DNA of 63,908 bases, counting the filler, from Vezdaea acicularis (taxonomy: Eukaryota): NCBI GenBank assembly GCA_026025075.1. It is 5 parts of 5 records of this genome, joined end to end, with 100 filler letters (N's around TTAATTAATTAA, not from the genome) between each part and the next. Parts side by side here need not be neighbours in the genome. Positions count along the whole stretch, not along the records: positions 15,401 to 29,993 come from JAPEUI010000227.1; 4 more parts are not named here. One strand, written 5' to 3'. Below the pieces are notes generated by a model. That model was not told where the DNA came from. It did no database searches and saw only the letters and a list, made by a program, of their open reading frames with translations. Shown one piece after another: positions 15,301 to 63,908 of the stretch (positions within the stretch are counted from its first letter, which is position 1; each line of letters starts with the position of its first letter). The translations under genes and the position numbers were made by a program.

Positions 15301-15400
15301 NNNNNNNNNNNNNNNNNNNNNNNNNNNNNNNNNNNNNNNNNNNNTTAATTAATTAANNNNNNNNNNNNNNNNNNNNNNNNNNNNNNNNNNNNNNNNNNNN
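15301..15400. other. Artificial contig-joining spacer
   Basis: N44-TTAATTAATTAA-N44; stops in all six frames. Confidence 0.98.
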
Positions 15401-15702
15401 CCCTATAATGGGAGTTCGCATACGATCTGGGTGACCCGGCGGTCGTCTAAACTAATGGTACATTCCTGAGGAACATGGTCCAAGAAGTACGTGATGCTGA
15501 CTACGTGAGTCATGCAATCCTAAAGCAACCTTTAGCATCCAAAGGACACACATGAATGGGCGCTAAGCAGCTGGTAAGAACGCTAAAACGAGATGTGGTA
15601 TAGAGTGAAAGGAAATGGGGGGGAAAACCAAATAACTTCATGTCCTCCCCTCCGGAGCCACAAGTTCTTCCTCTCATCGATCGGTCCCACCCAAGCTCGC
15701 AA

Positions 15703-18227
15703 CTAGTCCAAATCCACTGGGTCTTCTCTTGAGCCTGCCCCACTATAGGGATGAGGCACTGGATTTTGTCTTAAAGTCCTGATCCTACGACGAGCAACCC
15801 TTCGTGTAGTAGCGTTCTGTTGGTGTTGAGCCACTTGCAACTGGGGCACACCTCGGGTTGCGGGAGGAGCAACCCTTGGCGTGGTAGCATTCTGTTGGTA
15901 CTGAGCCACCTGCAACTGGGGTACACCTTGAGCTGCAGGTAGAGTCAAGCTTTGTATCGTAGCGTTCTGTTGGTGCTGAGCCGCCTGCAATTGGGGTACA
16001 CCTTGGCTTGAAGGAAGAGCAAGCCTTGGTATGGTAGCGTTCTGTTGGTGCTGAGCCACCTGCAATTGGGGCACACCTTGTTGTGAGGGAACAGTAACCC
16101 CTGATGTGGTAGCTTTATCATGGTTCTTAGCCACAAATTTTTGGGCACAATCAGGGCAACGTCGAGCTGACCAGATTTCGCCCTTATTTTGTTTACCCTT
16201 TTTACGGCGATTTTTATTCTGTCTGGCAGACTCATTTCCCAGTCCGATAGGCTCGTTTCCCAGTCTGAAAGACTCGTTTCCCAGTCTAACAGGCTCGTTT
16301 CCCAGTCTGACAGGTTCGTTTCCAGCATTCTGGGCTCGCCTTTGTCGTTCCGCCGCAATTCTTGCTAAAAGCTCAGTGTTACTGAGCTCTTCCAGCGGTT
16401 CATCCTCTACGCTGGCTCCGGTGGGCATAAGAGGTTGAAGTGATTGATGCTGTACATCAAGTTTCATCCCCCCCCGGTCATTCCCTTCTTCCTTTAGCTC
16501 TCTTAAAGGTCGATCTGACAATTGGATCTGTGAAAGTGAATCATTCAAACTAGTGAAATTTGGCGCGGCAGGCTGTTGCGGGTAATGCAATCTAGCCCGG
16601 TCAAGAGGCCTGTCAACGACTGGACAAACTGTAGGACCAATGATACTTCCAGGGGTCGCATTCTCTTTACCGATATTGCTAGTCCTGGAAGCCTGACAAG
16701 GATTTATCTGGAGATATGGGTCGTTGCGCTGTATTTGGCGCTCTCTTCTCTTCAGACCTGACATAGTGAGACCTTTAGCTCCAAGAAAGTTCCCGAGTTG
16801 AGAAAGCGTAAGCGAGGGCGGAACTTGAAATCGATGTTCAGGGTACACTTCGCGAAGTCGCTGAGCTCGGTATTCATTCTTCTGCTGAGTCGTCGTCTTC
16901 GAGAGTCGTCCATTGACCCAATTCTGATCTGGCTGACGTCCATTCGTTCCCCGTATCTGATGAGGAGAAGGTTGTTGCGCCTGCAGTTCGTGACTCTGAG
17001 CTCCTTGAAGGAAAGCTTTATTGACTTGTGCGCTTGCCGGTTGCTGTCTTTGTACTATTTGACGACCTTCAAGTTGTCCTGGCGTCTGGGGAGGGAAGGG
17101 CCATTGCACATGGGATTCATGACTCTGGGCTCCTTGAAGGAAATATTGATTGATCTGGGCATTTGCCGGTTGCTGTCTTTGTATTCTTTGAGGGCCTTCA
17201 ATTTGCCCTGGCCTCTCTGAAGGAAAGGGCCGTTGCGCCGGGAACTCATGAATTTGAGCGCCTTGAAGGACAGCTTGATTAATTTGGACGGCTACCGGTT
17301 GCTGTGTTTGTGTGCTTTGAGGTGCTTCAGCAGGTGGTTGCCATAGACCCTCGAAATATAAGTTAACAGCTATGTGAAAGAGTCAACCACGACATCATCT
17401 ATATTATCAAGACTTCGGCGTACCATTCTCCATGTCACCACCTGCCACCTTTCTAATTTCTGTCAATGCCACTGGAGTGAATCTTCGATCTACGATGGTC
17501 TCAAATAGGTCCGCATCAAAGTCATGCGGAGTGACTCGGGTGATTTCCTCTTCCGCTGTCTCATGTTCGAAATCTGCTAGTATTGACCTCTCTCTCGGGT
17601 TGGAAGGCTCAGGGTAGTCGAGTACCATCTGATTTGGATAGTGTGTGACCACGTCGGCAATTGAGGCCTGAGCAGCAGGTTCTTTCGGGACAAGGATGCC
17701 TAAAGACTGCTCCGCTCGGTTTTGTGCTTGATTGGATACCATACGGGTATATTCGTGATTTACAAGAGTAGAGAACATGTAATTAAATGGAGCAGGCGAG
17801 CCATACTTAGAGTGAGGCGAGTGGCGCTGGAAATCGACGGGATGATCGTTTATTTCCCTGGAGTTGGACCCAGTGGCCTTGAGCAGAAGTCAGCATGGGC
17901 CTAACTTGAGTTGCAAGTTCACAGCATTCCAGCAGATCTGTTGAGTGTTCTTGCCGCATAGTTAGAGGTAACGATGCTCACCATTGTAGTTTGCTGTGCC
18001 CATACTGGGGCGCGGGGGCCATAGGCGGGTATCTGCAAGCTTCGAAGCCCTCCGTGGTTAAGGTTAGTACGATCATGGCTATTGTCTGTATCATCTAGAG
18101 CAGCTTCTGAACCCGCTGTAAGCAGAGGTTGGTCATCAGCTACCATCGTTGAACGCCTCTCGAGGTTGAGTGTTTGAGGTATCCTACTATGTTCCAATCC
18201 ACCAGCCATATCTTCATAATATCTCAT
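15703..18227 (-). CDS. Orphan repeat-rich protein (~788 aa) with a UBA-like segment and a C-terminal SIM-like motif
   Basis: Exons 18227-17982, 17877-17424, 17369-15703 (2367 nt, in frame). Introns GTGAGC..GCTGAC..AAG and GTACGC..TAG. Splicing creates FDADLFETIVDRRFTPVALTEIRKVAGGDMENAVNLYFEGLW. Ends GSREDPVDLD*. Start codon uncertain. Confidence 0.6.
15790..16085 (-). repeat. 4 x 75-nt coding tandem repeat (GVPQLQVAQHQQNAT..., 25 aa)
   Basis: ttctgttgg recurs at 15815, 15890, 15965 and 16040. Confidence 0.9.
16231..16325 (-). repeat. ~4.5 x 21-nt coding tandem repeat (GNEPVRL)
   Basis: ctcgtttcccagtctRacagg-type units; protein GNEPVRLGNEPVRLGNESFRLGNEPIGLGNES. Confidence 0.9.
16960..17330 (-). 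repeat. ~3 x 129-nt coding tandem repeat (43 aa, QQP..QIN..FLQGAQSHE)
   Basis: ccttgaagg recurs at 17003, 17132 and 17261. Confidence 0.85.
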
Positions 18228-18291
18228 TTCTTCATTCCTAACCACCGGTAGACTTAGTAAAGATCGTACCGACTTTTCTTGGCCATGAGCT

Positions 18292-20645
18292 TCACCTCTC
18301 TTGATACAGCTCGTTTAGCCTTTTGCGATGCCACGTGAACGATGAGTAATTTCCTCCGAGAATAGGCTCCAAAATACTCTTGCCTACACGATCAGCAGGA
18401 CTCGCATTTTCCAGATTACCCATCTGCTGTCGAAGGGTATCATAAGCATCTGCAAAGCATTTTAGGACCCTAGCAATATTCCCAGAGCCACCAGATATAT
18501 CGTTGGAAGCATTATTAGGATCTTCTATCGAAAGACGATTCATGTTCTTGTAGTGAATGAATTGATGTTGAGACTCAAATGAGCGTGTCAGCTTGGTTCA
18601 GACAGGTAAGGAGAAGCATACCTTTTCAAAGTATCCAGGTGGACTCAGTCTAATGCCCACTCTGTCAATATCAAATTCTTTGCCATACAGCTCGAAGAAC
18701 GCCATCAGTAGCTCTCCAAGGTTACGTGTAGTAACCATGTTTCCACTCTGGACTGCACCCATATTCTGCAAAAGACTCGTGACCATACAGGTGACCGAGA
18801 ATCCGCCTAAACCTCCGGTCGAGACGTCGTTCAAATTCCGCATTGCCAACAACTGTTTGACTAGAGTCACAATGATCGGCATTGCCGGGAATTGATGTTT
18901 CCAGAGGTTGAAGGTCTTATTTGCAATGATCCCGGTCATGTTCTCCAGCGACAGATCGACCCGAAGCCGCGTCTTTCGATCAACGAATTTGATGAGTGGA
19001 ACTCTAGATTTCGGGATGACAATTATTGAGTCAGGAATAGCGATGTCTTTCTCAATAAGCAATTGTTGAATGCTATACAAGTATTTACGAGCGGGCTCGA
19101 AGTGCTTGTACGACCCAGAAGTAAAGGCGGCAGAGTTCATTACAAGGTCCATATCAGCATCTGGCAGATAGAGTCCTGCAGCAAAAGACCCAAAGCTGTG
19201 GATACTTGCTTCTTTCCATCTTGAACACAGGGTGCTGGAAAGACGAATGACGAGCTCATCACGAATAATTTGCTCATGGCGCTGAGGTCGGACATACTCC
19301 CAAAAGTCGTGGATCTCCTCATGTAGCCTATGTATACAATAAGCCGGACTAGCAGCTGGAAAGGCCCACAAAGATAGTAGATTCAAATAGAAGAAGCTTG
19401 ATTAAATGTTCGAGAGACTTACCAGATTGAAACATCCTGGTCTTTTCGGCTTCCAATATTGATCCAGGGTGTGGTGGTCTGCCCCCTAAGCGGAGCCCAA
19501 GCATGCACGATTCTGCCGTTACCAGCCCTCCTTATTTTGGAAGGAAGAGGAGGCTCATCCAGATCATCATCACTTTCCAAATGTCTCTTTCTCTTTCCAA
19601 GTGTAGCACTTGGTGGAGCTCTTTCTTCCTCTAAATGACGTCGGCTCGCTTTGGTAGAGACTAAGTTTTCGTGCCCATCCTTGCCATTTGCACGTATGGG
19701 TGTGTTTAGCGTACCCTGTGCCCTTATCTTATGAGAAGAGCCACTATCAGTCTTATGCTCGTCACCACTAGAGTCTAGCGAGATGAATCCCTCGCGACTG
19801 GTAGCCTTTGCGTCAGTCTGAGGCTTTTCAGCCACGCGGGCCTTTCGAATGAGTTTGACAACGTCCTTCTTCTTTGCCTTAGCGTCATTCGGTGGTGGTA
19901 AGGCTGAATATGGGTCCGGATTGGACCACTTTTGATTGGGAGTATCGTTACCGAGGGCACCTCTGAGTGACTCTTGAGCTGCTTGCGATACGACTAGTTC
20001 TTCCGGGCGGTTCTTGTCAAGAGCTGAAGAAATTCCCGAAGCCTCAAGTCTTTCGTCCTCCGACTCTAGGTCTGATTGAATATCCATCTCGTCTTCCTGA
20101 CTATCAGAAACGTCATTCACGTCAATGTATTTGTGACTACCATCATTTTCTAGGGACATTCCTGCCAGTTGCTCAGGAGTTCGCTCCCTTTCAGCCTGTA
20201 AAAGTGGGCGAGTCGCAGCAACCTTGTCCACTCTGATGTTGGAAGGCTGTCCGAAACGCTGTGAACGTCCATTGCGTACGCGCCTTTTTTTATGGGTTGG
20301 TGCTGTGCCATCGGCTCTTGGCTGATAGCTTTGAGGCCCGTGAGGGAATCGAGGAGCAGCTGGAATGTTGCTTGGCAATTGTGGGTTAAAGGCAAAATGT
20401 CCCATATCTCGATCGTGTAAGGGATAATTGCTGTTTTGGCTGTTTATGGGAGGCATAGAACGAGAACGATGCTGTGGAGTAGCCAACTCAAATCGGGCTG
20501 GGCTTGAAACGTAATGTGGTTGTGTTTGATTTAGACCATTTGGATACATAGGCAGCCCGTGGTGAGGACCAGTGAAGACTGGATTACCATTTTGAAGATA
20601 GCTTGACTCATATCCATAAGGGTTTTTAGGGGGAGGCTGCCCCAT
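18292..20645 (-). CDS. TRF4: Non-canonical poly(A) polymerase Trf4/Cid14 (TRAMP), ~736 aa
   Basis: WLHEEIHDF; nucleotidyltransferase motif FGSFAAGLYLPDADMDLV; GGLGGFSV; PAP-associated LSIEDPNNASNDISGGS. Exons 20645-19423, 19327-18622, 18573-18292; the second acceptor appears to be GAG. Confidence 0.9.
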
Positions 20646-21420
20646 GATGTACTGCCTCAGCTTGACGTTGTGGAGTTATATGTTAACTCTTGAAGAAAGA
20701 CCAAAGAGACAAAGACGGTGTTGACACTCGACTTGTGTGCGATCGGTGTACGAGACCTTCGCAGACTTTACAAGAAAGGAAAGGGGGAAGAGAAACGATA
20801 CAGCAGAGAGCCTACCACGAATGGCTAAAGTTGAAGCTGACGGAGATGTACCATACGCTGTAGCCTTTGCAAGGAAGGAAGTGAAAGTCCACGACGGAAT
20901 GAAAACAACAAAAGAGCCTCGACTTTGTGGGCAAGAAAAGTTTTCGCTTCGATAGGCGAAATGAGGCTCTGATAACGTGATTGTATGCCCGTGTCAATAG
21001 TGTTCTGCTGCTTCCGGTTGATACAGAGAGTGGCGAATCCGCTAGGTCGCTGCTACAGTAGAGGTGTGCTCTCCGAAGATATGAATTGATGGCCTAACTC
21101 TGAGCAGTAACCTCAAGGTTAGTCCCTGACTTTCGGGATGACGGAATGTTACTATTTACCCTCAGTCCTTCTTAAGCATATGAATACCACATTGAATCTC
21201 AAAATAGCCTTCAAATCGTTACGCAAAGTTGGTGAATAAGCTTGATCCTTTGTTAGTAGCCTCTTTATTGATTCCTTGTTCATGGCTACCGAGAACAAGG
21301 ATCATTCGCCGCTTGCTTGGATGACTAACATTAGCTTTTAACCTTAGCCGCGGCAAGGTATTTTAACAAATCAATTGTTTTGACACGAACCTCTATCCTA
21401 CCCGTTTTGGATTTTTCGTA

Positions 21421-22471
21421 ATGGGTAACGATGGCGGAAGGTTAGTCTCCACCCTTCATCCATGATACACAAACTAATGCCATCCACCACAGCATACCAA
21501 AGCGCCGCGAGTTAGTGAAAGAAGCGGCGCGCAACCCTACCAGCTCCGAGCTTAAGGAAACACTGCAGGAGCAGCAGGCATTTCAGTGGACAACATGTCC
21601 TCTTTCCCATGAGCCCCTGATACGGCCTGTAGTCTCCGACTCGTCAGGTCGGCTGTACAATAAAGACGCCATCCTAGAATTCCTCCTTCCCTCCGTTGAT
21701 GAGATATCCGTTAGCAAGGAAGATGGGGAAGAGGTACTCCAAGGAAGAGTCAAGGGGCTAAAGGATGTAGTGGAGGTCAAATTCGAAGTCGAAGAGGGCA
21801 GCCTATCCAAGGATGCAACAAGTGAGCTCAAGCGCGAGAGATGGGTCTGCCCGGTGACACGGAAGCAGCTTGGTTCAAAGGTCAAGTCTGTCTATCTAGT
21901 ACCCTGCGGACACGCTTTTTCAGAGAGCGCCGTGAAAGAGATTGCTGGCGATAGCTGTTTACAGGTGAGCTGAGTCCCAAGATGTCTTAGAGAAATTCTT
22001 ACCAGACCTCAGTGTAACGAGTCGTTCTCGCAAGAGAACGTCATTCCCATCCTCCCCCTCACCTCACCTGAGTTGGAAAAGCTCGAGTTGAGAATCGCAA
22101 AGCTGAAAGAGCAAGGCTTGACGCACTCGCTCAAGAAAGCTTCAGGCGCAGGTAAGAAACGAAAGAAGCATGGTGATACGAACGACTCATCTGAAGCACT
22201 ACCAAATGATTCAAAAAAGCCTCAGAAGAGCTCAGCTCCACAGGACGGAAGTAGTGCATCGCTCTCCAGCGGCAAGATCCACAATGAGGCCACGGCTGCT
22301 TTGACGGCAAAGGTCCTTGAGTTTGAGAAAGAGCGGAATAAGCGGCGAAAGCTCGGTCTGAACGATAATCTGAAAAGTCTGTTCTCAGGAACGAAGGACG
22401 GCGAGAGTCTCAACAAGACTGGCGATTTCATGACGAGGGGCTATTCGATACCAAGCGGCGCAAAGAGATAG
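21421..22471 (+). CDS. RTF2: Replication termination factor Rtf2 (RING-like), ~316 aa
   Basis: MGNDGGSIPKRRELVKE, WTTCPLSHEPL, WVCPVT, PCGHAFSE, CLQC. Introns 21441-21492 and 21965-22012. Confidence 0.92.
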
Positions 22472-22665
22472 GTGGGAAGGTCTGCGGGGGGCATTAGGCG
22501 GCGTATTGGCTTTAATCGGGGGCAAACCCTCGAACAGAAGGAAAACTACCACATATTGCTCAATGCCGAAGAATTCTGCTTTGGGGACATGTAGATTCTC
22601 GTGCGAACGCTATTTTATAATGCCAAAATAAATGGGAATATTCTACCATCTCCCAATTGATAACC

Positions 22666-24471
22666 TCACAGCTCATCCTTCCCACTAACTTTCTCCTTCT
22701 CACTCCCCTCACAAGCAGCCGGGGTTCCAACCTCCATCTTATAGACACATTTCTCCACCTCCGCGACCCTCCAAATCTCCTCCTTCTCCGCACACCCGAG
22801 CACAACAGTCGTGCTCCTACTCGGCCCGTTCCAGCAGTGCTGCCCACCCTCATACAGCAACGCGAGCCGCTCCCCGACGCCCAACCCCTTGCCATCGGCA
22901 GGCACGTCCTCATCCACAACCACCTTGTCGAACCTCACGAAATTGCCCAAGTTCGTCCCACCGCCGCCTTTCTGGGGAATCTGCATGGTTTTGTCCATCC
23001 AGCAGAGCTCGTAGGTATACTCGCCACTGTCGGTCTTGACACAGTGACCCTTGAGGGCGCGGAAGATGTCCGAAGGGCCGTGGTCACGAGCGAGATCCTC
23101 GTTTTGGGCCGTGAGGTCTTTCTGTTTGTTGTCGCGGTCGGTTTGGGCGGCTTCGAGTGCGTTGCGGGCGGCGGAGACGAGGTAGGATTCTGCGCCGTTG
23201 CCGTTGTCGGCGAGGATGCCGTTCTCGATCAGCATTACGCGGAGAGAGCGGAGTTTCTGGTCGAGCCAGTGGCGCAGGGATGGCGGGAGGTAAGCTTCAA
23301 ACTGGTATACTGCCAGTATGTTAGTATATCGTAGAGACTTAAACGAGTGGGGTTACACGTACGAACACCAACGTCATCCTCCTCCCCTCCTTCCCACTCC
23401 GCCCAATTGATGCCTTGGTCCTGTCCATCCGGCTTGAGAATCTCATTCAGGTCACGTTCTTCTGCAGCGTTGTCATCTACGCCAACCGTCGCCCCGGATT
23501 CTTTGCCAGCAGCATAGTCATCCCAGGCCTTGACCGCTCGCTTCACGCCCTCGTCGTTGAAGTTCGGGTTGTAGTCCACCCGGAAGTTGGTAAGAATCTC
23601 CTCGAGCTGTTTGACCTTGTTGTGGTATATATCTCGCTGCGAGCGGACGGATAGCAGATTCGTTCTTAGCTCTTCAATCCGATCTTTCGCAATGCCAGCT
23701 AAGACATTGACTCGGCTTCCACCGGGAGAACCCTTCACCACCTTGCCCTTCTCTTTTATTTCTACATCTGCCAACTCCTTCTCCAGAACCAATACTCGCT
23801 GATCTGCACTCTTCACCTCCGTGCTCAGCTGCGCGATCCTGCTCTCAACTTCCTGCCTTTTCGTCGTCGCCTCCAACACCATCTCTTTCCTCCGCTTGAG
23901 GGCAGCACCCATAGCCTTCTTTCTCGCGTTGTCCAGTGCCCGCCATTCCTTTCCTATCTCCTTACACCGGTTCTCGCACGTAACGCCCCCTGCCCCATCC
24001 CATTCATCGCTACCGTCACAACATAATTCATAGTCGCAGACTCCGTCATTAACATTGGTGAAGGGTATATAGCCAGGGTTGTGGCCCTTGTTCTTGCAAT
24101 AGAAGCCAGGGAGTGATATTACTGCTTGTTGACTGTCGTTCTGAGAGAGAGGAAAGACGTGTGAGCAGGCAGAGGTTCCAGGCTCGTCGGAGCCATCGGG
24201 GCAGTCGCAGTAGTCGTCGTTGACCTGGTCCAGAGACAATATGATGGTCGGGTTCGATATGCAAGCGAACCTGTCTGCCGCCTTGTAGAACTTCGCGACT
24301 ACGTATTGTCAGTGAGAAGCACTATCACGCGCAGCGAAACCCCATGGTCCTGCTTTGGAGGGGGCTGCAAAACTTACATTCAGGTCCAACACCTCTAGGC
24401 CGTGGAGCATCTGCAGCAACGGCTAAACCAGCAGCCGAGCTTAGCAGTATTAACGCATGCAATCGGCGCAT
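22666..24471 (-). CDS. GTB1: Glucosidase II beta subunit, ~557 aa
   Basis: Signal peptide; VNDDYCDCPDGSDEPGTSAC; MRH domain (YTYELCW...GQHCWNGPSRS...KCVYKM..TPAAC); C-terminal KDEL. Introns 24377-24299 and 23362-23310. Confidence 0.93.
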
Positions 24472-24639
24472 GTTGTCATGCAATCTGTACTACAATTGGT
24501 GAACATCAAAAGGGGAATGTTGATGCGCGTTTCGAGATCGCGGTTTTCGGCCAGATCCTCGCTAAGAAATTTCGAGGGACAGGGGTATGAGCTTCATAGG
24601 ATGTTAAGCTACAAAAGCCGGACCCACCAACAAACCAGC

Positions 24640-24908
24640 TGTTACTGTGAGGCGCGTGCGTATGGGCAGGCAACAGACTAGTCTCACTTCGGATGGTCGC
24701 ATGCGTATCGCATGCGAGTCGCAGGCGGTAGTCAATAGTAGATAGTATTCAATAGATGTCTCTTAGGATTGATACGATTGAATACTAAGGAGCTATTCTA
24801 CAGTGCTTCCCCGCTTTCCTATATGACGGTGGTCACATGACGTATACCTAGCGCTTGCCAAGCGCAGTCGAGTCGCAGGCTAAGTCACGGGAAGGTAGGT
24901 TCGTGACA
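24640..24908 (-). repeat. 3' LTR (~263-269 bp)
   Basis: Minus strand starts TGTCACGAACC at 24908, right after the PPT. Far end is TGTTAC (24640) or TGTGAG (24646) on +. Bases 24782-24908 match 63782-63908 in reverse complement. Confidence 0.85.
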
Positions 24909-24923
24909 ACTACCCCCCCCTTT
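24909..24923 (-). other. Polypurine tract (plus-strand primer)
   Basis: Minus strand AAAGGGGGGGGTAGT directly 5' of the LTR TG. Confidence 0.85.
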
Positions 24924-25169
24924 ATGCCTGCGGTCCCCGCAGGGCTTATTGTGGCTGATAGGTAGGGGTTGTCATTCCGATACTTCAGAGTCCCCTCAGC
25001 CGCGCGTGCCGTGAGCAGGCCTCCCTGTGCAGCGCTATCATGGTCTTCGTGGTCCGCATGCGAGTCGTATGCGAGTCGCATGCGTCCTTACCCTTATTGG
25101 GAGCCCCTGACCTGTTGAAATGTGGGGATATCTAGTCCGTTTGAGAGGGACCTTCAGGCACGACGCTGT

Positions 25170-25366
25170 GGGGGCTCTTAGGGGCCGCATATTGTCCGCG
25201 TGCGGACCGCATGCGGGGCTCCTACCCCCTAACTCCTGTTAGGGTCCCTTGCTGTTTTCCTCTTCTTACTTCGTGGGTCTTAAGGGGCCGCATGTTGGTC
25301 GCGTGCGGAACGCATGCGGGGGCTCTACCCCCTAACTCCTGTTAGGAGTCCCTTGCTGTTTTCCTT
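25170..25366. repeat. 2 x ~103-bp direct repeat inside the retrotransposon 3' region
   Basis: ggggccgcat...cgcatgcgggg...ctaccccctaactcctgttagg..tcccttgctgttttcct recurs at 25181 and 25284. Confidence 0.85.
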
Positions 25367-25978
25367 ATTCCCACTGCGTAGTCCGGCTTCAGCTAGCTCT
25401 GCCGGCCTCGATGAGAAGTCTCATGCGATTTGCATGCAGCTCGCGCGCGGCAATCCTCTGGTGGACTGTCCTTGCCTTTGTTGACGGTCTCTGGCAGAAA
25501 AGGGGTTACCATCGCCAGCGGCTTCTATCGGCATGGGAGAGCCCCTTTTGCCTGCGCGCGGCGTTTCCTACCCCGTCTCATCGGCTTGTAGGACCCCGCA
25601 AGCCGTCATTCACTGTTGGAGGCTCGCATTAGAGCTCCCGCGCGCTAGCCCTCTCTGTTGTGGGACAGCGGGATAGGGGCAGAGAGTAGCGACACACTAT
25701 AGGGGCAGGGAGCAAGGACGATATATACTAACAGACGCAGCCTCCTTATAGCGCCTGCCCATAGGGCCAGCGCTATGAGGCATGCGACTGCCCTGCAACG
25801 GACAGCGCTTACCGCGCTGTCCTGATCGGGCAGTCGTGACCGGGCACGTGATGGCCCGTATATATAGCATATCTCCTTAGATAGAATCAATGCAACTCTT
25901 TCATCATAAACCCGTACCAGGACGCCTTGTCCTTGCAGTGTCTGGACACCTCGTGCCCTGACACTCTCGCTAGGGGGC

Positions 25979-26160
25979 TATAAAAAGAACCCTCCTCTTC
26001 TTCCTTCTCTTCTTCTTTTCTTCTTTCTTTCATATCATCTTCTACTACTCCGCGGGTCTCGTGCTTTTGCCGGCCCGCTCTTTTCTCTTTCTCTTCCGGC
26101 TTTGCCGTCTCTCCTCTCTTCTCTCTTCGGCTTCGCCGACCTCTCTTCTCTGCCTGCTCG
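25979..26160 (+). promoter_or_regulatory. TATA box plus pyrimidine-rich leader for an antisense gene inside the retrotransposon
   Basis: TATAAAAAG at 25979, followed by a CT-rich tract, upstream of ATG 26184. Confidence 0.55.
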
Positions 26161-26183
26161 CAGGCGTTTCGACAGCGTTTGCT

Positions 26184-26773
26184 ATGTCGAACGTCCGTCC
26201 TCCTGCCGGGCCCCTGATGCCTTATGAGCCCGGGGTCATTCCAAAACGTCTTGCCGGTGGTCCGCCCTTGGATCGCCGGTGCTGCTATGGCTGTTTTCAG
26301 AAGCTTCGGACTGAACCATGGTGGATCTGCGAAGGCGATCCGATGCAGAAATGCAAGGCTTGCCAGAAGTCTAAACACTTCACTTCCCCTGTCCTCTCAC
26401 TTCACTTCTTTCCCCCAACCCCTTGCGTTTCGCCTGCGAATCTAAGGCGATATGCTAACGTTTTGATAGATTCCGGATCTTTTCCACGAAGCAGTTAACC
26501 TCATGATGGGAAAGGCGATTCAACTTTCGGAATTGGATAAGTCTCTTGCGTTTCCCTTGCGATTCCCTTGCGAAAGGCCAATGCTAACTGCTATTAGGGG
26601 CTCATCTTGCTTCGCACGAGTCGTACTGGGTCTTCTTGGAATTCCAGCGGCTCATAGTACAACTCTGCTTGGAAATCCGGATCTGGCGTAAGGACAACGA
26701 TCCGACTGCGGGAAAAGCATGGGCTGGTCGACCATATGCGCTGGCACTTCGTCCGCTTGGCGACTTCAGATAG
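26184..26773 (+). pseudogene. Antisense spliced ORF with Zn2Cys6-like motif inside the LTR element (degenerate donors; may be decaying)
   Basis: Exon 26184-26390 encodes ...CCYGCFQKLRTEPWWICEGDPMQKCKACQKSKHFTSP. Putative introns 26391-26469 and 26537-26597 both have GCTAAC..TAG, but donors are GTCCTC and ATAAGT. Model gives 149 aa. Confidence 0.5.
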
Positions 26774-26934
26774 GCCACCATTCTCCGATGACAATCCGCC
26801 AGCTCGCTCCGTTTCTCGCTCTCTTTGTTGTCAAGTTCTTCGTGATCCTCCTGAATGCCCAGTGAACCAAGGGAAAACCAAGCGCCGTCGTTGTTCAGAC
26901 ATCTCAGTAGAGCCGTGCGCAACCTCCGGCCTGA

Positions 26935-27136
26935 TGATACGAATTCCTCCTCTTGAGTCCATAAATCTCTGCAACTTCTTGGTCATTAGCACCATTTCGA
27001 TTACGAAGTACGGAGTAGAGATGAGAAAGAACCAGCAGCCCAAGATGCAGCATCACTGTCCGGCTTAGTCAGCAGTTGACCACACTAGCGTGGTCAACTG
27101 CTGACTAAGCTAGGGCCATGTTGTAACTATAGGACA
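26935..27136. mobile_element. Possible nested solo LTR / MITE-like insertion (202 bp) with a long hairpin
   Basis: TG...CA ends; flanks CCTGA/GCTGA (4/5 TSD-like); 21-bp perfect inverted repeat at 27063-27110. Confidence 0.45.
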
Positions 27137-27165
27137 GCTGATGCGAGGAGAGGTCTCCGGTTCCG

Positions 27166-27711
27166 GTGGGCCCACGTGAGACGAGGACGCCCCGAGTGCA
27201 AAACGCTGCTCCTTTGCCTCGTCCTAGTCCTCCGGTTGTTTTGGCCCCTCCCCCTCGTCCGCGGCTTGCGCAAAGCCTTCAGCTTTCCGCAACTTCTCCT
27301 CCGACCTTGTCTCCGTCTGCTTGTCGCGTGGATACGCCTCCGGCTCGCAGCGGCTTTTGTTCGCCGAGCCTTCCTCCTTTTCTCTCGCCTCCGGCCGCTC
27401 CTTTGTCGCGTCCGGCCCTTCCAGCGTCCCCCTTGGCACCAGTCGCCTCGTCCGGGACTATTGTCTTCCCGCTGCCAACACCGCAGCCAGCCCGACGTCC
27501 TTCCGCTTCCCGTCCGCTTGTGACGTACGAGGGACGGGCGTCCCGGGCGGCTTCCGTGATGTCTGCTGCGTCCCGGGCAACTCCCGAGCTCGAGACTCGA
27601 GCGTCTTCTGTGCGGCCTCGGGTGTCTCCTGAGCTTGAGGCTCGCTCTCGTTCCGTTGTGGCGGATAGCCGGGCGGAGGATGATGGGGAGGAGTCGGGAT
27701 GGGAGGAGTAG
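27166..27711 (+). CDS. Antisense Pro/Ser/Ala-rich ORF with acidic end, probably the distal part of the antisense cargo
   Basis: 181-aa frame ending EDDGEESGWEE*; the frame opens at a GTG and has no ATG near its 5' end. Confidence 0.35.
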   Translation: MGPRETRTPRVQNAAPLPRPSPPVVLAPPPRPRLAQSLQLSATSPPTLSPSACRVDTPPARSGFCSPSLPPFLSPPAAPLSRPALPASPLAPVASSGTIVFPLPTPQPARRPSASRPLVTYEGRASRAASVMSAASRATPELETRASSVRPRVSPELEARSRSVVADSRAEDDGEESGWEE

Positions 27712-27968
27712 GGGGTGAAAGCGTTTCGCCGCAGTAACGCGGGCGTTCGCTATAAATTGAACGGGAATTGGTTTGGGAGTTCGGGAGTTTGAGACTGCGG
27801 GAAGAAGGGGAGTTAGGGAGTTAGGGCCTTGCTTTTACTGCTCCTCTTAGATAGGAATAAAATCTGCTGCTCCTCATCTCCTTGTGCTGGTGACTCAAAC
27901 CCTTCCCTCCCCCCGTGCCTCGTTCCTTCCACGTTTCGCGTGCGAGGCAACTGCGGCCTTCAGCCCGA

Positions 27969-29993
27969 CTACGTGACGGGGCGCCTACGGCGTCGGGCTG
28001 TTTTCCATTGCCAGCGTCCCTCCGCAGAGAGGTCCGCCTTTGTTGGATACCGCTTGTGGAACTCAGCACCGAGGTCCTGTAGCGCTCGAGTCCTTTCCGT
28101 CTCTTCCGCGGCTACCCATTCGTTCTCGATATCCCCCCTATCCTCGTAGCTGACCAGATATCGCAGCTTGCCATAGTGCAGTTTGCTGTCAAGGATGCGA
28201 GCCACCGTTGAGTCGCCATCGCCCGCGACTCGCAGCGGTAGCGCGCCCGTATCGCCGCGTCCCTCTCCGGTCCTATATGGTTCCAGCAATGATACGTGGA
28301 ATACAGGGTGGATCTTCGTTCCGGCGGGTAGATCAAGGCGATACGCCTGCGTCCCTATTGCGTCTGCAACACGGTATGGACCGTAATATTTGTAGTCAAG
28401 CTTCTTGGACGGTCTGATGGTGTGAATGTTTCTCCCAGACAGCCAGACCATATCGTCAATGGCGAAGTCCATCGGCTTATGCTTCGCATTGTAGTACTCG
28501 GCTTGTTTGGCTACTGCCTCCTGCCAACGGTCCGTAAGGTCCTTTCGGGTCTTTTGCATTGCGTCGATTCGCGACTGAACCGCAGGTACGTCGCAGTCGG
28601 CTCGCATTACCTCGTCCCCGGTGAGGGGATGCTCAGCCCTGGCGAGGAAGAAAGGGGTATGCTTGGTAACGCTATGGACACTGTTGTTGTATGCGAATTC
28701 GGCGCTGCCTAGCCATTCAACCCAGTCGTCCTGCTGATAGTTGATGTAGCTCCTAAGATATTGCTCCAGCGTCTGGTTCTGCCGCTCTGTCTGCCCATCC
28801 GTCTGCGGGTGGAATGCGGTACTCAAGCGTCTCTTGACACCGAGTTGATAGCAGAACGCAGACCAGAACTTCGACGTAAATTGGGTTCCCCTGTCTGTCA
28901 CTATAGACGCAGGAACGCCATAGTTTCTCCAGATACGCTCGTAGAAGAGCTCCGCCAATCCGGCCGCGTCTAGAGTCTTCTGGGTCGGGATGTACTGGGC
29001 CATCTTAGAAAGCCGATCGACGACCACGAGTATCGAGTCGTATGCGATTCCGCTGCGACTCGACGGCGGCAGGTCAGTTATGAAATCCATGGTTATGTCC
29101 CTCCATAAGCCTTCTGGCGCGGGAAGGGACTGGAGCTGCCCGTAAGGCTGATGCCGGGTTGTCTTGGTCCGGGCGCAGGCGTTACACGTGCGAGTATACT
29201 CCTCCACGTCCTTCGCCATGCCCGGCCAGTAGTACTTGCGACGAAGTGCTTCCAGCGTGCGCAAATAGCCAAAATGGCCTGCATGTGGATCATCGTGATT
29301 GCTCCGCATGGCTTCCCCTCTTGCGGGAGCGGGAAGGTATGCTAGAGTTCCATGGTATAGCAGTCCATTACTGACTATCCATTCCGGATCATCTCCTCCA
29401 GGCGGCGCCTGCGGCGAAACCCCTGCGTCTCCCGTGCGCTCCAGAGAGCCACCGGGTGTGCGCTGCCCCTTATTGCGGGTAAGGAAAGATAATAACTCCT
29501 GAGCGAATCCGTCGTCCTCTTGGAGTTCGGCAACAAGCTTGCGAAACGACTGCGAAGGATCGGCGTACGCACTTTCTTCCCGGGCGTTCTCCCTGACCTC
29601 ATTCAGGGGTACAATGCGTCGAGGCCTACCGCTCCGAGACAAGATGACGGTAGCCATTGCGCGCAGGGAGAACGTGCTGTCATGGGGCGACTCGTCCTGC
29701 TCCGCTCCTTCCCCTGTGCTCAGGGGCTCGAAGCGCAGGTCCGGCGATAAGTCCGCGAAAGCTGCATATACGACCGTCTCCTCCTGAAGAAGGCTACCTC
29801 CTGTCTGCTGGATCCCTTCGTCTTCCCCATCCGCGTCCGGCTCGCAGTCGGAACGCAAGGGAGACTCTTCTTTGGGTCCTCTGCGCCGCGTTGTCTCACC
29901 CGAGGATAACTCCCGCGAGAGCTCTTCGTGTGCGGCACTTGCGCGCGCCTCTCCCCCGGAGGGGATCCCGCCATCCTGCTCGAGGGTAGAGAT
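27969..29993 (-). CDS. Pol C-terminus: linker, integrase (HHCC, DDE, GPY/F) and chromodomain
   Basis: HDDPHAGHFG..CNAC; ITMDFITDLP; IVTDRGTQF; TDGQTERQNQ; KYYGPYRV; IHPVFHVSLLEPY; ARILDSK..RYLVSY..NEWV. Frame open to the contig end. Confidence 0.93.
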   Translation of the reverse strand: MSTLEQDGGIPSGGEARASAAHEELSRELSSGETTRRRGPKEESPLRSDCEPDADGEDEGIQQTGGSLLQEETVVYAAFADLSPDLRFEPLSTGEGAEQDESPHDSTFSLRAMATVILSRSGRPRRIVPLNEVRENAREESAYADPSQSFRKLVAELQEDDGFAQELLSFLTRNKGQRTPGGSLERTGDAGVSPQAPPGGDDPEWIVSNGLLYHGTLAYLPAPARGEAMRSNHDDPHAGHFGYLRTLEALRRKYYWPGMAKDVEEYTRTCNACARTKTTRHQPYGQLQSLPAPEGLWRDITMDFITDLPPSSRSGIAYDSILVVVDRLSKMAQYIPTQKTLDAAGLAELFYERIWRNYGVPASIVTDRGTQFTSKFWSAFCYQLGVKRRLSTAFHPQTDGQTERQNQTLEQYLRSYINYQQDDWVEWLGSAEFAYNNSVHSVTKHTPFFLARAEHPLTGDEVMRADCDVPAVQSRIDAMQKTRKDLTDRWQEAVAKQAEYYNAKHKPMDFAIDDMVWLSGRNIHTIRPSKKLDYKYYGPYRVADAIGTQAYRLDLPAGTKIHPVFHVSLLEPYRTGEGRGDTGALPLRVAGDGDSTVARILDSKLHYGKLRYLVSYEDRGDIENEWVAAEETERTRALQDLGAEFHKRYPTKADLSAEGRWQWKTARRRRRPVT

Positions 29994-30093
29994 NNNNNNN
30001 NNNNNNNNNNNNNNNNNNNNNNNNNNNNNNNNNNNNNTTAATTAATTAANNNNNNNNNNNNNNNNNNNNNNNNNNNNNNNNNNNNNNNNNNNN
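29994..30093. other. Artificial contig-joining spacer
   Basis: N44-TTAATTAATTAA-N44. Confidence 0.98.
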
Positions 30094-44671: not shown

Positions 44672-44771
44672 NNNNNNNNNNNNNNNNNNNNNNNNNNNNN
44701 NNNNNNNNNNNNNNNTTAATTAATTAANNNNNNNNNNNNNNNNNNNNNNNNNNNNNNNNNNNNNNNNNNNN
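44672..44771. other. Artificial contig-joining spacer
   Basis: N44-TTAATTAATTAA-N44. Confidence 0.98.
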
Positions 44772-59208: not shown

Positions 59209-59308
59209 NNNNNNNNNNNNNNNNNNNNNNNNNNNNNNNNNNNNNNNNNNNNTTAATTAATTAANNNNNNNNNNNNNNNNNNNNNNNNNNNNNNNNNNNN
59301 NNNNNNNN
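59209..59308. other. Artificial contig-joining spacer
   Basis: N44-TTAATTAATTAA-N44. Confidence 0.98.
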
Positions 59309-61089: not shown

Positions 61090-61920
61090 ATGAAGAGCAC
61101 AAGCGCGGCACTCAGCCTCTCGGCCCTCCTCTTCTCCACCCTCGCCCTGGCAGTGCCCTACCCTCAGCACCAGAACTACAACAACTACGCCGGGTTCAAG
61201 CGAGACTTGTATGTGACGACCGTCACCGACTGGGTCGTTGAGACGGTAGACATCACCTCGACAGTCTACGTCTCTCCGTCCGACAAGCCGGCCGCCCCTG
61301 CCGCGCCCCCTCCAGCCTCGACGACGACAACCTCGAGCAGCTCTAGCTCCGCCGCCGCCTTCTTCCAGGCCCCGCCGTCCTCCAGCACCACCGTCAGCAC
61401 TACAAGCACCACACCCCCACCAGCCACGACCCCGGCCGTCCAAGCCGTCGTCCCCACCACATCTGCCGCTGCTGCACCCCCTCCACCCCCACCATCCTCC
61501 ACCTCCGCCGCCCCGCCCCCACCTCCCCCATCCTCATCCGCCCCCGCCCCCGCCGCTCCCGCCGTCTCCACCACCTCCACCAGCGGTGGCGGCTCCGGCG
61601 GCACCCCCAACAAAGGCGACATGACCTACTACAGTGCCGGGCTCGGCTCCTGCGGCACCACCAGCGCCGACACCGACCACATCGTCGCCCTCGCCCACGG
61701 CCTCATGGACACCAAAGCCACCGGCAACCCCAACTCCAACGGCTTCTGCGGCAAGACTATCACCATCAGCTACAAAGGCAAGACCGCCACCGCCACCGTC
61801 GTCGATACTTGTATGGGCTGCGACGGCATGTCCATCGACGTTTCCCCCGCCGTCGCCGAGGCGCTTGATCCGGGCTATCTCACTGATGGCCGCGTGGAGG
61901 TGGAGTGGTGGTTCAATTAG
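61090..61920 (+). CDS. Secreted expansin-like RlpA/DPBB protein (Asp f7-like), 276 aa
   Basis: Signal peptide, KR site, S/T/P linker, then GDMTYYSAGLGSCG..IVAL..NPNSNGFCGKTITI..VVDTCMGC..IDVS. Confidence 0.88.
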   Translation: MKSTSAALSLSALLFSTLALAVPYPQHQNYNNYAGFKRDLYVTTVTDWVVETVDITSTVYVSPSDKPAAPAAPPPASTTTTSSSSSSAAAFFQAPPSSSTTVSTTSTTPPPATTPAVQAVVPTTSAAAAPPPPPPSSTSAAPPPPPPSSSAPAPAAPAVSTTSTSGGGSGGTPNKGDMTYYSAGLGSCGTTSADTDHIVALAHGLMDTKATGNPNSNGFCGKTITISYKGKTATATVVDTCMGCDGMSIDVSPAVAEALDPGYLTDGRVEVEWWFN

Positions 61921-63781: not shown

Positions 63782-63908
63782 TGTCACGAACCTACCTTCC
63801 CGTGACTTAGCCTGCGACTCGACTGCGCTTAGCAAGCGCTAGGTATACGTCACGTGACCACCGTCATATAGGAAAGCGGGGAAGCACTGTAGAATAGCTC
63901 CTTAGTAT
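63782..63908 (+). mobile_element. Second LTR copy (5' LTR or solo LTR) of the same chromovirus family, cut by the window end
   Basis: 125/127 identical to the reverse complement of 24782-24908. Starts TGTCACGAACC; no PPT upstream. Confidence 0.9.

Follow-up and report, generated by a model that had tools for sequence, protein, structure and literature searches.

The window analysed here, a 63,908-nt stretch of Vezdaea acicularis DNA, consists of draft contigs strung together, with linkers of the form 44 N + TTAATTAATTAA + 44 N between them. We studied one of these contigs, 15401-29993, in which the end of a pol gene on the minus strand is followed by an internal region, a polypurine tract (PPT) and the 3' long terminal repeat (LTR) of a Ty3/gypsy-type retrotransposon. 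On the strand opposite to pol, the stretch from the pol stop to the PPT contains a putative gene of three exons and two short intron-like segments, preceded by a putative TATA box and a CT-rich leader. These features had been proposed by a first-pass annotation made from the DNA alone, and direct reading of the sequence located the TATA box, the leader, the ATG, the exons, the introns and the pol stop all where that annotation had placed them (Table 1).

A homologue of the antisense gene spans its first intron

The first exon encodes a cysteine-rich module, C-x2-C-x11-C-x7-C-x2-C-x6-T-x-P. In both intron-like segments a GCTAAC stands 10-11 nt ahead of the TAG, and the in-frame join of the three exons gives 149 codons, ending at the stop 26771-26773. 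An intron of a host gene elsewhere in the same contig has GTAAGT and CTGAC, the same style as the introns of the antisense gene. We searched 1,835,955,588 protein representatives exhaustively with the exon 1 product by HMMER (phmmer). Two matches were returned, P0002 and P0003, the second of which is the sole true relative. P0003 is a 155-aa hypothetical protein whose source is labelled as a Vezdaea acicularis metagenome-assembled genome (MAG). It aligns with exon 1 at E 7.8e-5 and 39% identity, colinearly over residues 1-67/1-68, and the two share an MS start. When P0003 was in turn compared with the window by tblastn, its residues 1-67 fell on 26184-26381 (26/67 identical) and its residues 71-92 on 26470-26535 (11/22 identical, Expect(2) 8e-11), the second segment beginning exactly at the predicted acceptor. 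The match therefore passes from 26381 to 26470 with only 3 residues between, in agreement with the predicted intron 1 and exon 2. A homology that spans intron 1 thus bears out the proposal that the region from the pol stop to the PPT contains a gene which is antisense to the element, has introns and codes for a protein.

P0003 has six cysteines, spaced 2/11/8/2/6. Around the site of the sixth its sequence is KHF-C-HE-IPD, against KHF-T-SP / IPD in the window. Since P0003 has a Cys where the window has a Thr, the sixth Cys belongs to the family and was lost from the window copy.

The other match, P0002, scored better than P0003 in the exon 1 search and was rejected as a relative. This secreted protein of 307 aa has a signal peptide and a set of four Cys-rich repeats; it has just AGGPP and T[DE]PWWIC in common with the window, its Cys columns are misaligned, and it does not match P0003. 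The likeness of its AGGPP...T[DE]PWWIC to exon 1 of the window is motif-level.

Further searches for the gene gave 245 pattern matches in JGI metagenome contigs and 68 in viral contigs, with none confirmed in either set. Among prokaryote genome contigs there were 45 matches and one nominal confirmation, in the bacterial chromosome L020; it concerns a 14-residue stretch, was judged a chance match and was rejected. A loose five-Cys pattern likewise has one chance match in L020, and one elsewhere in the window (61601-61681, minus strand). Word-indexed protein searches with P0003 (67 candidates) and with a profile, A3 (149 candidates), returned P0003 only, and the Cys motif is absent from all 19 related gypsy loci in which it was sought. 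On these sequence comparisons the gene family is an orphan, of which P0003 is the only other known member.

The homology to P0003 also bears on whether a protein is the effective product at all. An antisense RNA, complementary to the genomic RNA, might itself be what matters, by feeding or tuning RNA silencing. Passages of a review discuss antisense promoters and double-stranded-RNA-based control for elements with antisense open reading frames (aORFs) (PMC7264820), and part of another paper describes Botrytis gypsy elements, including BcGypsy1 with its antisense gene brtn, as strong small-RNA sources (PMC8365987). However, a protein identity of 39-50% with P0003 across two exons points to coding constraint, at least formerly, and we consider it distinctly unlikely that the RNA is the effective product.

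Table 1. Position of the antisense gene, of the retrotransposon around it and of other features of the window
Feature	Position	Strand	Remarks
3' LTR	24646..24908	-	TGTCACG...CTCACA; ~263 nt
PPT	24913..24923	-	AAAGGGGGGGG; 4 nt (TAGT) before LTR start
Internal region	24924..27968		pol stop to PPT; 3,045 nt; contains antisense gene
Putative TATA box	25979..25987	+	TATAAAAAG; read from sequence; within 25565-26029, replaced in one related contig
CT-rich leader	25990..26183	+	related contigs retain it from 26030 on, with numerous 1-nt gaps
Exon 1	26184..26390	+	ATG 26184; 69 codons; starts MS; phmmer match P0003
Intron 1 (predicted)	26391..26469	+	79 nt; donor GTCCTC, atypical; GCTAAC 26454-26459; acceptor TAG
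Exon 2	26470..26536	+	22 codons + 1 nt; tblastn match to P0003 residues 71-92
Intron 2 (predicted)	26537..26597	+	61 nt; donor ATAAGT (window), GTAAGT (relatives); GCTAAC 26583-26588; acceptor TAG
Exon 3 (as modelled)	26598..26773	+	stop 26771-26773; basis, in-frame model
pol, 3' part (Ty3/gypsy)	27969..29993	-	linker, integrase zinc finger, rve core, SH3-like domain, weak chromodomain
Six CGCATGCG palindromes	24698..25318		2 in LTR, 4 in spacer; within 620 nt
Tandem pair of ~103-nt unit	25173..25365		89% alike
Multi-copy stretch	25580..25963		directly upstream of TATA box; ends ...TGACA at 25963
Near-perfect palindrome (hairpin)	27063..27110		48 nt; ~290 nt past the gene's stop, mid-spacer
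Pro/Ser-rich reading frame, acidic end	27142..27711	+	exists; unsupported as coding
Linkers	15301-15400, 29994-30093, 44672-44771, 59209-59308		features on either side are not genomic neighbours

The gene probably lies in the 3' end of a chromovirus-type element

The pol frame is open on the minus strand from the contig end at 29993 to the stop at 27969-27971, a length of 674 codons. Pfam matches to Integrase_H2C2 (2e-20), rve (1e-08) and SH3_Tf2-1 (1.5e-20) describe an integrase with an H2C2 zinc finger, a DDE core and a C-terminal SH3-like domain, as a Ty3/gypsy chromovirus requires. The Chromo match to the C-terminus of pol is weak (E 0.019, 15.3 bits, under the 25.1-bit cut-off). Homologues of pol number 2092 at E<=1e-30, and most of the 120 listed carry the chromodomain PF00385; among those listed the top identity is 73% and the others are at ~50% or lower. 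From the Pfam domains together with the chromodomain-bearing homologues, we therefore take this frame to be the 3' end of a Ty3/gypsy chromovirus-type pol. The contig end cuts the element inside pol, and gag, protease, reverse transcriptase and the 5' LTR fall outside the visible part. At the start of the visible frame (29290-29993, minus strand; the first ~230 residues), some 220 residues that precede the integrase zinc finger are acidic, of low complexity and without a Pfam match, and the top pol homologues span just 53-82% of the query. This N-terminal stretch suggests a lineage-specific linker.

The start of the LTR at 24908 (TGTCACG) is fixed by a 98% match of 24782-24908 to 63908-63782 (127 nt). 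Its other end, 24646, is inferred from loose metagenome contig ends found there in two of the runs described below, X3 and X5; the bin 24655-24839, within the LTR, has a high metagenome depth (194-446). The PPT adjoins an LTR with TG...CA ends, as expected of an LTR element. The second LTR copy, at 63782-63908 on the plus strand, runs off the end of the window and has ordinary sequence ahead of it, with no purine tract; judged by its sequence, it is either a 5' LTR or a solo LTR.

We compared the distance from pol to the LTR with that in related metagenome gypsy loci, LTR pairs having been located in 5 of the 7 loci looked at. It is ~15 nt in L001, 50-150 nt in L002 and ~1 kb in L007 and L008. 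Since related two-LTR gypsy loci range from ~15 nt to ~1 kb, the 3-kb spacer of the V. acicularis element is unusual. The spacers of L007 (5311-6384) and L008 (6337-7541), both distant gypsy elements, contain sense-strand open reading frames (ORFs) of 70-118 codons that are rich in charged residues and without the Cys motif.

Past the LTR, a host gene that resembles the glucosidase II beta subunit and has a signal peptide starts at 24470 on the minus strand; beyond it are host genes for Rtf2 and a Cid1-type polymerase. The LTR ends ~175 nt upstream of the start codon of the glucosidase II beta-like gene, and the element therefore lies in the promoter region of that gene.

Related copies occur in moss and soil metagenomes

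The stretch is partly present in four moss-metagenome runs of one study and in one soil run of a second study; no RNA run was among those listed as containing it. Three of the moss runs (X1, X2 and X3) and the soil run (X5) were compared with the window, at the level of contigs rather than reads and in 30 depth bins. Related contigs, ~95-98% alike to the window, cover 30/30 bins in the three moss runs and 22/30 in the soil run, where the 8 bins without cover include most of the host flank; uncovered parts were not used as evidence. In the moss runs contigs cover the whole spacer, and in all four runs a contig bridges the pol stop into the spacer (X1 27787-28076, X2 27664-29993, X3 27793-28158, X5 27846-28139). 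On the other side, the LTR, the PPT and the spacer are bridged by one contig of X3 (24879-25243). Related copies, in the form of contigs, thus keep the segment.

These junctions are relevant to a quite different origin of the locus, as a composite in which the pol fragment, the 3-kb stretch and the LTR come from different sources and a host gene or pseudogene is trapped between transposon pieces. The position of the element's 5' half outside the visible contig would be compatible with this, and so would the patchiness of the spacer, with its multi-copy stretch at 25580-25963 and its 48-nt palindrome. A composite is nevertheless very improbable: the PPT adjoins the LTR start, and none is found before the other LTR copy; both junctions are kept in related contigs from two studies; and the host genes (glucosidase II beta, Rtf2 and Cid1-type polymerase) start only past the LTR.

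Within the gene, position 26537 is changed from A to G at full depth in X1, X2, X3 and X5, which turns ATAAGT into GTAAGT, a canonical donor for intron 2. The first-pass annotation had suggested that a consensus of copies might restore GT donors and the sixth Cys. Donor 2 is so restored in 4/4 runs, and the sixth Cys is present in P0003; donor 1, GTCCTC, is atypical in the window. In each of the three moss runs position 26656 is overlain by 2-5 different contigs, and several variants of the gene therefore exist. Among the pieces listed, divergence from the window is 2.4-3.6% over 26376-26961, 1.6-3.0% in pol and 4.2-8.3% in other pieces of the spacer.

Comparisons do not place the predicted protein in the Zn2Cys6 family

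Proteins of the Zn2Cys6 family (Zn_clus, PF00172) have the signature C-x2-C-x6-C-x5-12-C-x2-C-x6-8-C. The antisense gene had at first been read as coding for a transcription factor of this type, made by the element and serving as a self-regulator or silencing antagonist. Such a factor might, for example, bind the CGCATGCG palindromes. Like the factors of the Gal4 type, the protein is fungal and has six Cys in P0003, and the second half, C-x8-C-x2-C-x6-C, fits, the last three spacings of P0003 (8/2/6) being in the Zn2Cys6 range. However, the spacing in the antisense product and P0003 is 2/11/7-8/2/6, with a first loop of 11 rather than 6 residues, and Zn_clus is not matched in Pfam even at E 10. 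Unlike Zn2Cys6 factors, moreover, the window copy is without Cys6, and the protein is ~150 aa long, has no match to the hidden Markov model of the family and lacks the fungal transcription-factor middle domain.

More general comparisons gave no family either. With exon 1 and with P0003 as queries Pfam gave 0 families at a limit as loose as E<=10, no ORF of the spacer had a Pfam match, and a sequence search of the Protein Data Bank (PDB) returned nothing under E 1 (best E 1.1). AlphaFold2 models of P0003 are of low confidence, with a mean predicted local distance difference test score (pLDDT) of 48.9 for P0003 alone and 45.9 with a 3-row alignment; the tail of the protein is predicted, at low confidence, to be helical. 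Among look-alikes in the ESM Atlas, the top scores (0.92 and 0.91) belong to unnamed Ascomycota clusters, the named leads DUF8257/DUF8414 (0.75-0.80) and DUF3716 (0.78) are all under the 0.9 line, and no Zn_clus cluster is present. In sum, none of the comparisons made here shows the product to be a member of the Zn2Cys6 family. From the Cys pattern alone, our guess is that it would be a small zinc-binding regulator that binds nucleic acid or protein.

Possible target sites were considered as well. All six CGCATGCG palindromes fall within 620 nt of LTR and spacer, the sequence is nearly absent elsewhere in the 64 kb, and 13 of the 15 GCATGCG matches of the window fall in 24454-25786. A variant metagenome contig swaps 25010-25096 for 35 other letters, yet keeps one CGCATGCG. 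The palindrome is possibly a candidate protein-binding site, and its clustering speaks for a DNA-binding factor. CCG-N4-CGG sites, in contrast, are not enriched (27 observed vs 20.1 expected, with 8/100 shuffles as high). Taken together with the first loop, the Pfam and Atlas results, models at pLDDT 46-49 and a supposed Pro/Ser activation ORF that is not coding-like (see below), this leaves the Zn2Cys6 transcription factor with very little credence.

Other features of the spacer

A Pro/Ser-rich ORF with an acidic end, downstream of the gene, had been put forward as a further part of it. The analysis does not support this ORF as coding. No ATG occurs within the first ~140 codons, and its GC content at the three codon positions (0.70/0.70/0.57, vs 0.62/0.47/0.65 in pol) is not coding-like and is also unlike that of the host gene and of exon 3. 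Over 27100-27850 all six frames are stop-free for 120-235 codons, a result that 0/1000 shuffles reproduce; the plus strand is pyrimidine-rich here, and the stretch is TA-poor and CpG-rich. The ORF is therefore treated as a probable compositional effect of a pyrimidine-rich, TA-poor stretch.

The palindrome at 27063-27110 would form a hairpin with a 22-bp stem (dG -56.4 kcal/mol, z -9.9), and 0/200 shuffles are as stable. The metagenome contigs listed end on both sides of it. Possible interpretations are a terminator, a transposon footprint or a break point. Rfam gave nothing real at this position, with only two hairpin-shaped matches of 29-31 bits against gathering scores of 95-100.

In the part of the spacer nearer the LTR, one X3 contig omits one of the two ~103-nt tandem units (joint 25243>25348). 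Upstream of the TATA box, the stretch 25580-25963 has a metagenome depth of 58-303, vs ~20-40 beside it, i.e. 3-10x that of its neighbours, and loose contig ends occur at 25781, 25816, 25839, 25851 and 25963. This stretch might derive from another LTR, as a fragment, or represent a nested repeat. Aligned to the reversed LTR of the element's own family, 25690-25965 shows 66% column identity with long gaps, and a search of a plasmid collection with 25560-26030 gave no match. Elsewhere in the same contig there are two tandem-repeat arrays, at 15725-16174 (75-nt period, 5 overlapping copies) and at 16956-17342 (129-nt period, 3 copies).

Accessory gene or passenger

We favour, with a probability of about 60%, the reading that the antisense gene is an accessory gene borne by the element, of the brtn/aORF-3R kind (see below), and codes for an otherwise orphan protein. 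The gene would be transcribed independently of the element, from the TATA box through the CT-rich leader to the ATG at 26184, with three exons and two short introns of fungal style. Its product of ~150 aa would have, in an intact relative, an N-terminal six-Cys module (2/11/8/2/6). Because the introns are antisense in the genomic RNA of the element, they would not be spliced out and would be copied at each retrotransposition; after integration, the gene could be expressed from its own promoter. In related copies donor 2, at least, is intact.

Several observations weigh against an accessory gene. Exon 3 has no significant similarity to the C-terminus of P0003, as 6.75% of 2000 shuffles reach its score. 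The gene family has just two members, and P0003 may be an ordinary host gene. The window copy has three lesions, namely Thr for Cys6, GTCCTC at donor 1 and ATAAGT at donor 2, and is probably dead; since it carries these lesions while the 674 visible codons of pol are intact, the gene is not needed in cis. One related contig of 1,860 nt has ~51 extra letters at 26377, at the KHF codons and just before the missing Cys and the GTCCTC donor. CACTTCACTTC occurs twice in this region of the window, and the difference could have arisen by deletion from the window or by duplication in the related contig. In the same contig 25565-26029, TATA box included, is replaced by ~257 other letters. Over the spacer the contig depths sum to ~12-35, similar to the 6-29 of the host flank, and the element may be low-copy, with the metagenome contigs in part representing the same locus in related strains. 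Finally, that pol, spacer and LTR are one element is inferred from a single visible copy with its 5' half cut.

Some of these points would be accounted for by a passenger, that is, a host gene with its introns and promoter which was recently captured by one subfamily (through transduction, template switching or recombination) and is now decaying, with no role for the element. In the window copy Cys6 and the two canonical donors are gone whereas pol stays open, the one homologue bears the annotation of an ordinary hypothetical protein, and the depth suggests few copies; transduced aORFs, according to part of the review cited above, occur in one or few copies (PMC7264820). We nonetheless consider a passenger unlikely, as there are several gene variants in each moss run, pieces of both the gene and pol are also found in a second study, donor 2 is intact in 4/4 runs, and divergence over the gene is at the low end for the spacer.

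Relation to other antisense genes of retroelements

Contrary to the first-pass annotation, which knew of no characterised fungal example, Boty/BcGypsy1 of Botrytis cinerea and Sclerotinia sclerotiorum has an antisense gene, brtn, in the interval from pol to the 3' LTR, as described in part of PMC7264820; brtn or its product BRTN is also referred to in passages of PMC8365987, PMC4227169 and PMC5987419. The resemblance is close, in that both are extra genes of fungal Ty3/gypsy elements with a chromodomain (a weak match in the element here); both follow pol and precede the 3' LTR, run antisense to gag-pol and have no known function. The host lineage, unlike the position, differs. Zhao et al. (Virology 417:248, of 2011) reportedly presented brtn as an additional antisense gene of Boty. 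In the exon 1 search, which gave only P0003 and a motif-level match, the N-terminal Cys module showed no detectable likeness to any other protein of that library, nor to BRTN if BRTN is in it.

In plants, antisense ORFs between pol and the 3' LTR are listed, as the first-pass annotation had noted of plant elements, for maize Grande (gene23), rice RIRE2, Silene Retand and Phaseolus PvRetro13 in part of PMC7264820. The same passages describe the plant aORF-3R as present in most copies, as without database homologues and as suspected of a regulatory role, an internal promoter of its own having been shown for Grande (PMC7264820). The V. acicularis gene is like the plant aORF-3R in position and orientation, and in its putative internal promoter, which was read from the sequence. 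It differs in that the plant elements are of the Tat/Retand type rather than chromoviruses, in that the proteins are unrelated, and in its two introns and six-Cys module.

Complex retroviruses likewise have a spliced, antisense-encoded small protein at the 3' end of a retroelement, as exemplified by HBZ, the spliced antisense product of human T-cell leukaemia virus type 1 (HTLV-1); for the gene described here a regulatory role is unproven. The antisense promoter of HTLV-1 is in the 3' LTR, according to part of PMC7264820, whereas the putative promoter here is internal, and the proteins are unrelated. The review, in the passages concerned, treats the functions of aORFs as unknown and holds that antisense and spliced transcripts deserve attention (PMC7264820). 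Our literature search found no report of an intron-bearing or Zn-cluster-like/Cys-cluster antisense gene in a fungal LTR element.

A bolder version of the accessory-gene reading would be that, in moss- and lichen-associated ascomycetes, one chromovirus lineage codes for a spliced, antisense six-Cys DNA-binding regulator, divergent and binuclear-cluster-like, which acts on the CGCATGCG palindromes and was acquired independently of brtn. We regard this as a long shot. If it were true, a fungal retrotransposon would possess an accessory regulator of retroviral kind.

Accessory genes of LTR retrotransposons are poorly understood, and in fungi we found one described case, brtn of Boty. At present the V. 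acicularis gene is represented by one damaged copy in a draft contig, and its value is that of a lead rather than of a demonstrated function. If the accessory-gene reading is true, the gene would be a second, apparently unrelated fungal case, adding introns, a metal-binding-type motif and a homologue, and would suggest that fungal chromoviruses have acquired such genes repeatedly.

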